From: a virus
Lineage: Duplodnaviria; Heunggongvirae; Uroviricota; Caudoviricetes
Length of the DNA stretch: 64,000 nt
Virus record (IMG/VR): IMGVR_UViG_2880378312_000006
Direction: 5' to 3' (one strand)
A program made the position numbers. Below are positions 12,001 to 18,000 of the stretch, in pieces (position 1 is the first letter of the stretch; every line of letters begins with the position of its first letter).

Positions 12001-15000
12001 CGGAACCAAAAAGCATGCGAGCTCTGCCGTCCGGGGTTGTACCTGCCGTTCACCAGCCGCTGGCGGAAGATAAATCACTACTGCCATTTTTCAGCGATGA
12101 GCGGGTGATCCGTGCTGCGGGTGGCGCTGGTGCACTGTCTGACTGGTTATTACGTCACGTGAAATCCTGCCAGTGGCTACACGGTGATTATCATCACAGC
12201 GAAACCGTCATTCACCGTTACGGTACCGGCGCGATGGTGTTGTGCTGGCACTGCGACAACCAGCTGCGGGAGCAGACATCTGATTCACTGGATCAACTTG
12301 CTCAACAGAATCTGGCCGCCTGGATGATTGACATCATCCGTCACGCAATGAATGGCGCACAGGAGCGTGAATTATCTCTGGCTGAATTATCCTGGTGGGC
12401 GGTCCGCAATCAGGTGGCGGACGCGCTACCGGAAGCGGTATTACGTCGTTCGCTGGGGTTGCGTGCGGAAAAAATCCGCTCCGTATACCGTGAGAGTGAC
12501 ATCATACCGGGAGAACAGACCGCCACCAGCATACTGAAGCAGCGCACAAAAAATATTGCGCTACCGCCTCACACCCACCAGCAACAGAACCCACCACAGG
12601 AAAAGACGGTGGTCAGCATTGCCGTTGATCCGGAGTCTCCGGAATCCTTCATGAAACGACCTAAACGTCGCCGCTGGGTAAATGAGAAATACACACGCTG
12701 GGTAAAGACACAGCCGTGTGCGTGTTGTGGTAAGCCAGCGGACGATCCTCATCATCTGATTGGTCATGGTCAGGGCGGAATGGGAACAAAATCCCACGAT
12801 ATTTTCACGCTACCGCTGTGTCGGGAGCATCACAACGAGCTTCATGCGGATCCGCTGGCGTTCGAAGAAAAGCATGGTTCCCAGGTTGATTTAATTTTTC
12901 GTTTTCTTGATCACGCCTTTGCAACCGGCGTGCTCGGGTAAAAGAGGTTACTGATGCGTATAGAGTTTGTTTTGCCTTACCCGCCGACGGTGAACACCTA
13001 CTGGCGACGTCGTGGCAGCACATATTTTGTATCAAAAGCCGGTGAGCGTTATCGCCGGGATGTGGCACTTATTGTTCGCCAGCAGCGGCTGAAATTAAAC
13101 CTGTCCGGAAGGCTGGTGATAAAGATTATTGCAGAGCCACCGGATAAGCGCCGTCGTGACCTGGACAATATCCTGAAAGCACCACTGGATGTGCTGACGC
13201 ATGCCGGACTTCTCATAGACGACGAGCAGTTTGATGAAATCAATATTGTGCGCGGTCAGCTCGTTCCTGGTGAGCGGCTGGGGATAAAAATCACAGAACT
13301 GGAGTGCGCATGAATAACCACTATTTACAGTTTGTGCGTGAGCAGCTCATTATCGCCACCGCTGATTTGAGTGGGGCAACAAAAGGTCAGCTTGAAGCCT
13401 GGCAGGAGAATGCCATGTTCGATACAGGGCGTTACAGGCGAAAAAAAATCCGGTACCGCGATGAAGTGACTGGAAAAATGATAACGCGGGATAATCCACC
13501 AATCCCGGGAAAGCAATCGCTGGCGAAGGTGACGTCAATTCCTCTGGTCAGTCCGGTTGAGTTTTCGACATCATCGTGGCGGCGGGCTGTTCTGTCTCTT
13601 GAAGAACATCATAAAGCCTGGTTGTTGTGGTGTTACAGCGGGAGTATTTGTTGGGAATATCAGATCGCGATAACACAGTGGGCGTGGAATGAATTTAATA
13701 CTCAATCCGGTACCAGAAAAATTGCAGGGAAAACGCAGGAACGCCTGAAAAAATTAATCTGGCTGGCGGCGCAGGCAGTAAAAGCAGAACTTTTTGGTGG
13801 GGAAGGTTATGAATACAAGGAGCTGGCATTACTGGTGGGAGTGACAACTAAAAACTGGTCCAAAACATTTACTCGTCACTGGGTTGCAATGAAACACATT
13901 TTTCACCGACTGGATAGTGAGGCTTTATTGTTTGTAATGAGAACGCGTTCAAAACAAAAGGCGGCATTTTCAAAGCAAAGTGTTGCAAAAGTAGATTGAA
14001 AGGCATATATTTCATGCAAATCTGATATTTTGCCGATTTTGTACGTGATGGCAAAAGCAAACAAAACCCGCCCACAAGCGGGTTTTTTTGTGCCACTTAT
14101 CTCGGATAGACATGGTGAATGCGCTGGTGGAGGAAGTAAGGGTAATTTTTAACCAGGTGATTCTTGAATGCTTGCAACATTGATTTCGTAACGTTATTAT
14201 CCTGCGCCCGGCCCTTTAGCTCAGTGGTGAGAGCGAGCGACTCATAATCGCCAGGCCGCTGGTTCAAATCCAGCAAGGGCCACCATCACATACCGCCATT
14301 AGCTCATCGGGATAGAACGCCAGCCTTCGAAGCTGGTTTCGCGGGGTTCGAGTCTCCGATGGCGGTCCATTATCGGTATTCTGCGTTTTTAGCTCAGCAG
14401 GACAGAGCAATTGCCTTCTAAGCAATCGGTCACTGGTTCGACTCCAGTACAACGCGCCACACTTATTTTCCCGGCTCGCTTTTGCGGGCCTTTTTTGTAT
14501 CTGCGCCACGCCCGGCACATACCAACCACAGAGCCTTTCGGGGGGGGGGAGCTTACGGAGTGGTCAGTGTGACTTTCTCTGTGGGCAGATCGCTCCCGGG
14601 CGTTGGCTCACCCACCCAAAGGAACGTCACGATGTTTGGTATTTTTGGTAAAAAAAGCCCGCAGAGCGGCAACGGAAATTAAAAAGTTTGAAAAACGCGA
14701 TCTGGCACAGGTGGTGATTAACGCCGCATACCTGGTGGCCTGTGCAGATGGTGAATGTGAGGCATCCGAGAAAGCGAAGATCGAACAGGTACTGCGTAAT
14801 CAGCCTGCGCTGTCCGCGTTTACGTCAGAAATTAATGCGATTAGCGCAACCATTATCGGTCAGCTGGATACGAACTTTAAAACTGGTCGTCGTGCGGCGT
14901 TACGTGAGATCGAGGATGTGAAACACGATACGCGTGAAGCGGAAGATGTGCTGGATGTGGCGGTGGCCATTGCGGAGGCAGACGGCGAAATTGAGCCGGA

Positions 15001-18000
15001 AGAGCGCAAGGTGCTGGAAGAGATTGCCGGTGTTCTGGGTCTTCGTCTGGAGAATCACCTGTGACGGTAAAACTGCGCCTGACTGTGGCTGCACTCCTGC
15101 TGTTTCTGGTGGTGATGGTGGATTTCACCAGCAGAATCATGTCGGTGCTGGCGGATGGGGTGCTGGTCTGCGGCATTGTGGTATTGCTGTGGCCGGTGAT
15201 AAAAAGAAACAGCCTGCATAATGCTTGATTTTTTTGTTTGCTGTTTATTAAAAACACTTCTGCATGGTGAATCCCCCTGTGCGGAGGGGCGATCAGCAAG
15301 AAGGTATATGGGATAATCGCGGATTCAGGTGCTGGTACTGAATTCACCGGGAGGCACCCGGCACCATGCTTTGCCACAAAAGTGTTATTTCTGTTTTTCT
15401 CAAACTATCATCGTTATCCCTTTATTTCCGGCTGCGCATGGCGCGGCCTTTTTTTTACGACCAGCCACTGGCAGATGGTCATCCTGTGATTTGATTCCGG
15501 TTCCGGCTTTTTAACTCTGTTCCTGTACACGGGAGAAATTCGATGTCGATTAAACATTATGATGTTGTCAGGGCGGCGTCGCCGTCAGACCTTGCGGAAA
15601 AGCTGACACACAAACTGAAAGAGGGCTGGCAGCCGTTTGGTAGTCCGGTGGCCATAACCCCTTATACCCTGATGCAGGCGATTACAGCAGAAGGTGATGT
15701 GGTGGTCAGTGGTGCAACTGAGCCGGATTGGTACTACGTCATCGTACTGGCCGGGCAGTCCAATGCCATGGCTTACGGTGAAGGGCTTCCGCTGCCGGAT
15801 TCATACGATGCTCCGGATCCGCGCATTAAACAGCTGGCGCGCCGCAGTACAGTGACGCCGGGTGGGGCTGCCTGCAGATATAACGATATTATTCCGGCCG
15901 ACCACTGCCTGCATGATGTGCAGGATATGAGTACGCTGAATCATCCGAAGGCAGACCTGAGCAAAGGGCAGTACGGCTGTGTCGGCCAGGGGTTACATAT
16001 TGCCAAAAAACTGCTCCCGTATATCCCGAATAACGCGGGGATCCTGCTGGTACCATGCTGTCGTGGTGGTTCGGCATTTACCCAGGGCGCGGAGGGGACA
16101 TTCAGCGAGTCCACGGGGGCCAGCCAGGATTCGGCACGCTGGGGGGTGGGCAAGCCGTTATATCAGGATCTGATTTCCCGCACAAAAGCGGCATTGCAGA
16201 AAAATCCCAAAAACGTTCTGCTGGCCGTCTGCTGGATGCAGGGAGAGTTTGACATGAGCGCCGCCACCCACGCACAGCAACCTGCGCTGTTTACAGCCAT
16301 GCTGGCACAGTTTCGTGCTGACCTCTCCGTGTTTAACGCGCAGTGCCATGGTGGCAGTGCTGCAGATGTGCCGTGGATTTGTGGTGACACGACGTATTAC
16401 TGGAAAAATACATACGCTACCCAGTACGACACCGTGTACGGCGGGTATAAAAACAGGGAGAGTGAGGGCGTTTATTTTGTGCCCTTCATGACAGACGGTA
16501 ACGGCGTCAATACCGCCACTAACGCGCCGGCAGAAGATCCGGATATTCCGGCATCAGGATATTACGGTGCGGCATCGAGAACGAATGGAAACCAGGTATC
16601 ATCAAACCGCCCGACACATTTCAGTTCATGGGCGCGCAGGAGCATTATTCCGGAGCGTCTGGCAACCGCTATTCTGAACGCAGCCGGGCGCACCTCAGCC
16701 TTCATCAGTGGTAAGGCACCGGAAATCAAACCCTCGCCCGGCGGCAACACGCCATCGGGTCCGTCTGCAGATACGTCCGTTCGCACAATCTCCCTGCTGC
16801 CGGCAGCCGGAGAGGCTGCTGCGCAGGGCTGGAGCATTAAGGATGGCGGAATTCAGTTGTCAGATGGTGTATTTAAGATCACCAGGCAGAGCAATAAAAC
16901 CTGGTCCCTGACGCATCCGGTGGATGACGCAATTACCCTGCTGACACAGGGCGGCAGACTGACCTGTAAGTTCCGCCTGTCAGGCGCGCTGACCAACAAT
17001 CAGTTCGGGCTGGGGATTTATCTGTATACGGATGCTCCCGTTCCTGATGGTGTGGCGATGACGGGTACCGGTAATCCGTTCCTGATGTCGTACTTTACTC
17101 AGACCACTGACGGCAGAGTGAATCTGATGCATCACAGGAAAGCCGGAAACACGAAGCTGGGGGAGTTCGGCGATTACGGTAACGACTGGCAGACGCTGGA
17201 GCTGGTGTTCACCGCCGGCAGTGCCACGGTTACTCCGAAACTGAATGGAGTGGCTGGCCCGGCATTCCAGGTTATAAAAGACAGTCTGACACTGGGACTG
17301 AATGCGCTGACGCTGACGGATGTTACAAAAAATGCAGCGTATGGCGTTGAGATAGAAAGTCTGGTGCTGGAGATAAATGCACCGGCAGCATAATAAAAAA
17401 AGAGCCAGCGACTGACCTGAAAGAAGACGCTGGCTAAAAGGCCTTATATGTTTGTAGAGACTTATTTTTCACAGACAGCAATGATGCCTGTCAATATATT
17501 ATCAATATGCGGATTGTTTCAGTTACAGATGCTTTATTAAGGAAAAAAACAGCCAGCACTGACTTTCGGTGGAGAGGTGCTGGCTCAAAAGGATAGATGT
17601 ACTTCACATGTTGCTTCTATATGGCAGTACATTTTCTGACAGACAGTGACGGATGTTGTCAAGATATTGTGTCATTTATAACCTGAATCAGGGGGTGGCC
17701 GGAATGTTATCTGGCATTTTTAGCAGAGCCTGAATGCCATAATCACGGCTCCCGGCGTTGGCCGTCAGTGGGTGACACTGGCGGCTTTTTTGTTTTTCTT
17801 TACTTTCATTTTCTGTCGGCGGTGACGGAGACATACATCAGATGGAAAAAATCACAACAGGTGTGTCATACACCACGTCAGCGGTGGGGACGGGATACTG
17901 GTTACTGCAGCTGCTGGACAAAGTCTCTCCGTCCCAGTGGGTGGCGATAGGCGTGCTGGGGAGTCTGCTGTTTGGGCTGCTGACATATCTGACGAACCTG

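Follow-up and report, generated by a model that had tools for sequence, protein, structure and literature searches.

Two small genes, tciA and tciB, stand in the late region of the lambdoid prophage Sp12 of Escherichia coli O157:H7 at the position that the toxin genes stxAB occupy in Shiga toxin (Stx) phages, within a slot whose cargo differs from phage to phage. The region around them, from the antiterminator gene Q to the holin gene, is very likely the late-gene control region, or late-operon leader, of Sp12, a reading that includes Q-driven readthrough of tciAB. It was found in a stretch of 64,000 nucleotides from the IMG/VR virus record IMGVR_UViG_2880378312_000006 (Caudoviricetes), referred to here as the window, whose numbering is used for its own features (Table 1).

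The late region of Sp12

The window matches the chromosome of E. coli O157:H7 strain Sakai from position 1 to 20077 (Sakai 2235000-2255081) at 99.86% identity, with 24 mismatches and 2 gaps over 20 kb. The matching Sakai stretch adjoins ynfA and is annotated as "prophage Sp12, lambda-like phage"; this prophage (NC_002695.2, 2204089-2255027) is the same element as that in the window, with the same genes and annotation, and the Sakai gene names are given in Table 1. Many O157:H7 chromosomes, FRIK2533 and MB9-1 among them, match the 4.6-kb region at 100% identity, and of 5426 complete E. coli genomes 556 contain at least 80% of it. The region is not new: it has been annotated, and published in outline. 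Since the Sakai annotation already names the transfer RNAs (tRNAs) and the TciA/TerB-like cargo, and since earlier publications cover both the occurrence of nanS-p in prophages other than Stx ones and the idea of late-region morons, much of what follows adds little beyond confirmation.

On the plus strand the order is Q, a pR'-like promoter with a tR' hairpin, the tRNA genes ileZ-argN-argO with a terminator, tciA-tciB, an RNA element of the STnc100 family with a terminator, the sialate O-acetylesterase gene nanS-p, a further terminator and the holin gene. Q, the lysis cassette and every gene between them lie on this one strand, and the terminator scan shows four terminators on the way from pR' to S, the holin gene. 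Past the holin, on the same strand, follow DUF1327, lysozyme, antirepressor and Rz genes, with terminase, capsid and tail genes further down, so that both the lysis and the morphogenesis genes are found downstream of Q, as in a late operon. Every element that the initial annotation had named (Q, a PR'-like region with tR', three tRNAs, a TerB-like/membrane-peptide pair and a nanS-p-like esterase) is present in the window. The span it gave, 14210-17393, coincides exactly with the stretch that opens with ileZ and closes with the stop codon of nanS-p, but Q, pR' and tR' sit upstream of it. Its description of the whole as an Stx-phage-like late regulatory region is supported by the order of Q, tRNAs, slot and nanS-p, with the caveat that Q, pR' and tR' are of phage-82 type and unlike those of the two Stx phages compared.

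The Q protein is 76.1% identical in amino acids to that of phage 82 (X92588), 72.9% to its "Q82-like" counterpart in phage 434 and 67% to the Q of Gifsy-1, and belongs to family PF06323, whereas the Q of the two reference Stx phages (Stx1a and Stx2a) belongs to PF06530. With the Q/pR'/t82 system of phage 82 the region shares a Q that is 76% identical, a promoter-like site, conservation of the first transcribed bases and an intrinsic terminator, all directly past Q. The phage 82 record stops at the Q stop codon, its own pR' lying beyond the end, and the promoter was compared with phage 434, PPompW and Gifsy-1 instead; the comparison of a predicted Q-binding element and pause site is thus an indirect one, through related phages. 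Over the promoter and ~15 bases at the start of the transcript, the window aligns closely with phage 434 and poorly with Gifsy-1, and a second -10-like element, GATATT, lies at 14024-14029. A 51-bp pR' core (13978-14028) retains 86-90% identity in phages of Klebsiella and Enterobacter, although their Q proteins share only ~58-62% identity with this one; the DNA site is better conserved than the protein thought to read it. Such conservation is what would be expected of a Q-binding and pause region, and it supports pR' and tR', at which binding, pausing and termination would take place. The predicted 77-nt leader RNA (14018-14094) folds at -24.3 kcal/mol (z = -2.9), and its hairpin is equivalent to the tR' that follows the Q82-like gene of phage 434, at a matching distance. 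Rfam matches to isrK, isrJ and leader peptides at 14008-14092 (21-25 bits, all below threshold) were considered as a family for the short pR' RNA and rejected, because the genuine isrK match in the Stx2a phage sits with C4/c4-a1b1 elements near ant and not at pR'.

The cargo slot

Comparison with Stx phages defines the edges of the slot to the base. Against the phage Stx2a_WGPS6 (AP012539), identity ends at window position 14507, which is 43 bp before stx2A, and returns at 15244, 87 bp after stx2B; against Stx1_14040 (LC567819), it returns at 15248, 95 bp after stx1B. Between the same flanks, ~740 bp with tciA-tciB stand in place of ~1370 bp with stx2AB. On the left, the tRNA block (14143-14507) is 92-94% identical to the ileZ-argN-argO block of Stx2 phages; on the right, the window from 15530 to 18300, from nanS-p to the holin, is 97% identical to the Stx1a phage, nanS-p itself being 97% identical in nucleotides to the gene downstream of stx1 and ~70% to its counterpart in the Stx2a phage. 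The likeness to Stx phages that the initial annotation had supposed is thus real at the nucleotide level, and since the same two junctions bracket stx2AB and stx1AB, the TerB-like/membrane-peptide pair does lie at the stx position. The order of Q, tRNAs, cargo, STnc100, nanS-p and holin is common to the Stx2a and Stx1a phages and the window. Of the features of a Stx-converting phage, the window has ileZ-argN-argO upstream and nanS-p downstream of the stx position; it has neither stxAB nor a Q of PF06530, the Stx phages carrying stx and that Q with another pR' and tR', and its cargo is of ordinary base composition and poor in rare codons.

Two further phages share part of this arrangement. JLK-2012 (JQ347801) has tciA-tciB, STnc100, yjhS (nanS-p) and the holin at 90-96% identity, but carries a Q of 162 aa and Asn, Thr and Gly tRNAs. 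Phage 434 (OL657226) shares the Q82-like Q, tciB, the esterase and the pinholin, but has no tRNAs, and a 247-aa membrane protein takes the place of tciA. The hairpin that forms the left edge of the slot (14473-14496) also precedes stx2A in one Stx2a locus (L005), tciA in JLK-2012 and two empty sites (L058 and L014), and STnc100 directly follows the cargo in all four phages compared, that is, after stx1B, after stx2B and after tciB in both JLK-2012 and the window.

The contents of the slot were surveyed in IMG/VR, where 80 loci encode a NanS-p at least 90% identical to that of the window; the 69 with at least 2 kb upstream were classified. The pair tciA-tciB was found in 30 of them, the 434-type 247-aa membrane open reading frame (ORF) with tciB in 11, stx1AB in two and tciB alone in one, while 25 matched no probe; as the survey is biased to one nanS-p allele, these counts are examples and not population frequencies. 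Of the 25, 11 are sites that are truly empty, argO lying 86-88 bp from STnc100, five hold a 117-aa ORF with a shortened TciB-like peptide, four have a 227-bp gap without a forward-strand ORF of at least 35 aa, and five are without recognisable tRNAs or an STnc100 match, so that the gap could not be measured. At the empty sites the tRNA terminator leads straight into a full-length STnc100 leader, and the contrast of 30 tciAB sites with 11 empty ones between the same flanks is the pattern of a moron. STnc100 is present in 65 of the 69 loci, a P21-type holin lies downstream in 63 of 67, and three types of Q combine with the cargo classes without obvious linkage. Because the cargo varies between the same flanks and combines with three Q types, the initial proposal of an exchangeable cargo slot holds, the occupants being tciAB, stx1AB, stx2AB, other small genes or nothing. 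The base-level definition of the slot (the tRNA terminator on the left, a point inside STnc100 on the right), the examples of empty sites and the rough census are modestly useful, and the definition could aid the typing of Stx prophages and the study of stx movement among the lambdoid prophages of one O157 cell.

The absence of toxin genes, also claimed in the initial annotation, was confirmed. Searches with Stx1A/B and Stx2A/B (tblastn, E up to 10), proposed for 14460-15540 and run across the whole window, found no stxA or stxB remnant anywhere in it (best E 0.11, outside the region), and blastn at word size 7 with both stx loci matched only the common flanks in the window. Nothing suggests that stx was ever present at the Sp12 slot.

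Control of the cargo genes

The late leader very likely consists of interchangeable modules in series, namely Q82/pR'/tR', the tRNA unit, the cargo slot, STnc100 with its terminator, nanS-p, and a last terminator with the lysis genes. In Stx phages pR' is constitutive and its transcripts are terminated at tR' (PMC7547250, PMC8065619). In the Sp12 lysogen, pR' transcripts would likewise halt at tR', and the tRNAs would be made from their own promoter. After induction, Q would modify RNA polymerase at pR', and the modified polymerase would read through the four intrinsic terminators (at 14063, 14473, 15430 and 17760), which would co-express tciAB, nanS-p and the lysis genes late, as happens with stx in Stx phages. 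We infer late-promoter control of tciAB from the gene layout and on the model of lambda, phage 82 and the Stx phages, and the conservation of the pR' core across genera supports it. Taken alone, the generic terminator scan does not exceed chance (9 found, against 6.0 +/- 2.8 in shuffled sequence); support for the single hairpins comes from where they lie, at the boundaries of genes, and from their conservation in other phages.

Two points weigh against Q-driven late expression. Sp12 is a defective prophage, as its integrase (window ~70-750) is a pseudogene in the Sakai annotation and its portal gene is frameshifted in MB9-1; expression of its Q is therefore in doubt, and its late operon may never be fully induced. 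In addition, although the scan showed no sigma-70-like promoter over the 139 bp that separate the tRNA terminator from the tciA start (14497-14635), which speaks for late control, it relied on a rough consensus, and a tciAB promoter that is weak or needs an activator could have escaped it.

This second point bears on the possibility that tciA-tciB is an autonomous moron, expressed in the lysogen from its own promoter, with a function in lysogenic conversion and without the need of Q or pR'. Terminators enclose the pair on both sides (14473-14496 and 15430-15456), which is typical of morons (PMC8065619), stx1 in the same slot is mentioned as having its own promoter (PMC7547250), and the 5' leader of tciA contains a variable poly-G tract. 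Against these stand the lack of any -35/-10 candidate ahead of the tciA start codon, as far as a crude scan can tell; the GC content of tciAB, which at 0.50-0.55 is the same as that of the flanks (0.49-0.59) and lacks the compositional contrast expected of a moron; and the fact that TciA homologues are common among phages of Vibrio and Pseudomonas as well as among the large-genome phages of Erwinia and Salmonella. Autonomous expression of this kind appears unlikely, and Q-driven readthrough is the reading retained here.

It is far more improbable that there is no discrete slot and that the whole block from Q to S is swapped between phages. Lambdoid phages do exchange large modules, and the history of Q/pR'/tR' differs from that of the part from the tRNAs to the holin, homology to Stx2 phages starting only at 14143. 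The same flanks nevertheless bracket tciAB, stx2AB, stx1AB, other ORFs or nothing, with the tRNA terminator on the left and the STnc100 core on the right, and cargo and Q type assort independently.

That Sp12 is a decayed Stx phage, which lost stx by deletion and gained tciAB secondarily, is scarcely credible despite flanks that are 92-98% identical to those of Stx1a and Stx2a phages, given that no stx remnant is found at the protein or DNA level, that many non-Stx phages have the same intact tciAB cassette and junctions, combined with three Q types and other sets of tRNAs (as in JLK-2012), that empty sites exist, and that in the phage collection this Q type (PF06323) is found together with stx in five records only, each of which includes PPompW, a separate non-Stx prophage, as the part in which the Q gene lies.

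TciA and TciB

The TerB domain of TciA scores 52.4 bits against a Pfam cut-off of 24.4 and matches the nuclear magnetic resonance structure of TerB (2JXU, E 2.8e-7); the protein holds two ADGE...E motifs. The GTG start of tciB overlaps the TGA stop of tciA in the 4-nt sequence GTGA, and this overlap suggests that translation of the two genes would be coupled and that their products may form a complex at the inner membrane. Homologues of TciA occur in 128 phage records, including P1, P7, Erwinia and Salmonella phages with large genomes (~240 kb), and Vibrio and Pseudomonas phages. This spread through large-genome and other phages points to a putative role in the lytic cycle rather than in lysogenic conversion alone, and TciA and TciB are predicted to act, probably, as a membrane-associated pair in lytic growth.

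TciA has a TerB domain in common with P1 TciA, P7 TerB and the TerB of the plasmid ter operon and is 39% identical to P1 TciA and 50% identical to P7 TerB, but unlike P1, with its tciA-tciB-tciC, and the plasmid ter operon, the window contains neither tciC nor any other ter gene. The names attached to these genes, which refer to tellurite or colicin resistance and inhibition of cell division, are predictions only. When TciA, TciB, NanS-p and the membrane protein of 434 were searched against PADLOC, none matched a defence system convincingly (the best E was 0.005, and all domains stayed below threshold); for TciA, NCBIfam returned only a DjlA match below threshold. The 5' leader of tciA contains a run of ten G (14540-14549), where related loci have GGGGGTG (16 loci), G7 (four) or GGGGTG (one), the length of the tract thus being variable.

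The two-helix peptide of TciB type is found with three upstream partners: TciA with its TerB domain, the 247-aa membrane protein without a Pfam match, and, in a shortened TciB-like form, the 117-aa ORF. Examples of the variants are at L016 3495-4201, L078 3509-4200, L002 2638-3625 and L030-L042. In some tciAB loci two extra small ORFs, of 74 and 69 aa, lie between the tRNAs and tciA (L011 3325-4690, L031 3168-4601). As a long shot, the commonest occupant of the stx slot could be a family of two-gene modules built around TciB, with TciA, the 247-aa or the 117-aa protein as partner, that has an undescribed function in lytic growth, and the tRNA terminator hairpin and the STnc100 core might be fixed recombination linkers. 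If this were so, TciB modules could serve lysis timing, membrane protection or superinfection exclusion, and the linkers would let toxin and non-toxin cargo swap between the prophages of one cell.

The tRNA module

The tRNA genes have a promoter-like site of their own and a strong terminator, and in the Stx2a phage of Sakai a primary transcription start for the tRNAs has been mapped between tR' and stx2AB (PMC7547250). For these reasons the module formed by promoter, ileZ, argN, argO and terminator is probably self-contained. The first tRNA is called Met by ARAGORN and tRNA-Ile in RefSeq. The rare codons ATA, AGA and CGA number 7 per 1000 in tciA, 72 in stx2A and ~20 on average over the prophage genes, and the notion that the tRNAs are explained by the codon needs of the cargo was rejected in view of the low figure for tciA.

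The right flank: STnc100, nanS-p and the holin gene

The STnc100 element of the window is a variant, in which the core (model positions 29-150) is kept, the 5' leader has diverged and the terminator helix of the model is absent; the intrinsic terminator that follows differs from the one belonging to the family. A published study places STnc100 75 nt beyond the end of the stx2 operon (PMC12370729). Copies elsewhere lie at 4485-4698 in L003, 7725-7936 in L005 and 4352-4524 in L001. In the Stx1a phage (L003), a match to the small RNA (sRNA) AgvB (anti-GcvB) is found on the minus strand at 4700-4759, directly past STnc100 and between stx1B and nanS-p; AgvB has no match in the window.

NanS-p has the composition of its family, with a SASA esterase core like that of NanS, an N-terminal DUF1737 and a C-terminal lectin-like domain, and it matches the structures of NanS (3PT5, E 2e-122) and of the NanS-p C-terminal domain (6YP6, E 2e-29). 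The holin gene is 92-93% identical in nucleotides to those of the Stx2a phage and JLK-2012. Between nanS-p and the holin gene is an AT-rich gap of 448 bp (17394-17841) that contains the terminator at 17760-17796. In a 2026 preprint the PasA/PasC sRNA genes are assigned to the position of this gap, beside the holin and near TerB and RusA genes, and the gap may encode such an sRNA.

Table 1. Features of the Sp12 late region in the window
Feature	Position	Strand	Evidence and remarks
RusA	12954-13313	+	precedes Q in the gene order
Q, late antiterminator, phage-82 type, 231 aa	13304-13999	+	PF06323 E 7e-92; PHROG 304 E 1.6e-107; ECs_2267 'phage late gene regulator Q'
pR'-like late promoter, -35 TTGCAA / 17-bp spacer / -10 TATATT	13983-14011	+	consensus scan; overlaps end of Q
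tR'-like intrinsic terminator, AAAACCCGC-CCACAA-GCGGGTTTT then T7 run	14063-14089	+	sequence; ~50 nt past promoter
Promoter-like site TTGCAA-17-TATTAT	14172-14200	+	consensus scan; 10 bp upstream of ileZ, within block common to Stx2 phages
tRNA ileZ, anticodon CAT	14210-14285	+	Rfam 72.5 bits; ileZ6 in Sakai
tRNA argN, anticodon TCG	14293-14369	+	Rfam 44.4 bits; argN4 in Sakai
tRNA argO, anticodon TCT	14383-14459	+	Rfam 62.4 bits; argO6 in Sakai
Intrinsic terminator after tRNAs, left edge of cargo slot	14473-14496	+	terminator scan; strong
tciA, TerB-domain protein, 142 aa	14636-15064	+	PF05099 E 7.7e-14; PHROG 632 E 2.6e-65; ECs_2265 'TciA/TerB-like'
tciB, 55-aa membrane peptide, two hydrophobic segments	15061-15228	+	DUF3927 E 3.3e-17; PHROG 1470 E 5.6e-30
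STnc100-family RNA element, right edge of slot	15233-15405	+	RF02076 101.8 bits vs gathering score 47
Intrinsic terminator, 8-bp stem (7 GC pairs), T8 run	15430-15456	+	terminator scan
nanS-p, prophage sialate O-acetylesterase, 616 aa	15543-17393	+	DUF1737, SASA and DUF6645 domains; ECs_2262
Intrinsic terminator, 11-bp stem, T-rich tail	17760-17796	+	terminator scan; 46 bp upstream of holin gene
Class II holin S (P21 type), first lysis gene	17842-18048	+	PF04971 E 7.3e-33; ECs_2261

Other elements of the window

A sok antitoxin RNA lies at 11120-11294, beside hokD. DicF RNA is present in two identical copies, at 4223-4274 and 61593-61644, and the window from 58500 to 63161 matches the Sp12 early genes at 92-97%. 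This match and the second DicF copy show that a second lambdoid prophage begins near 58.5 kb.

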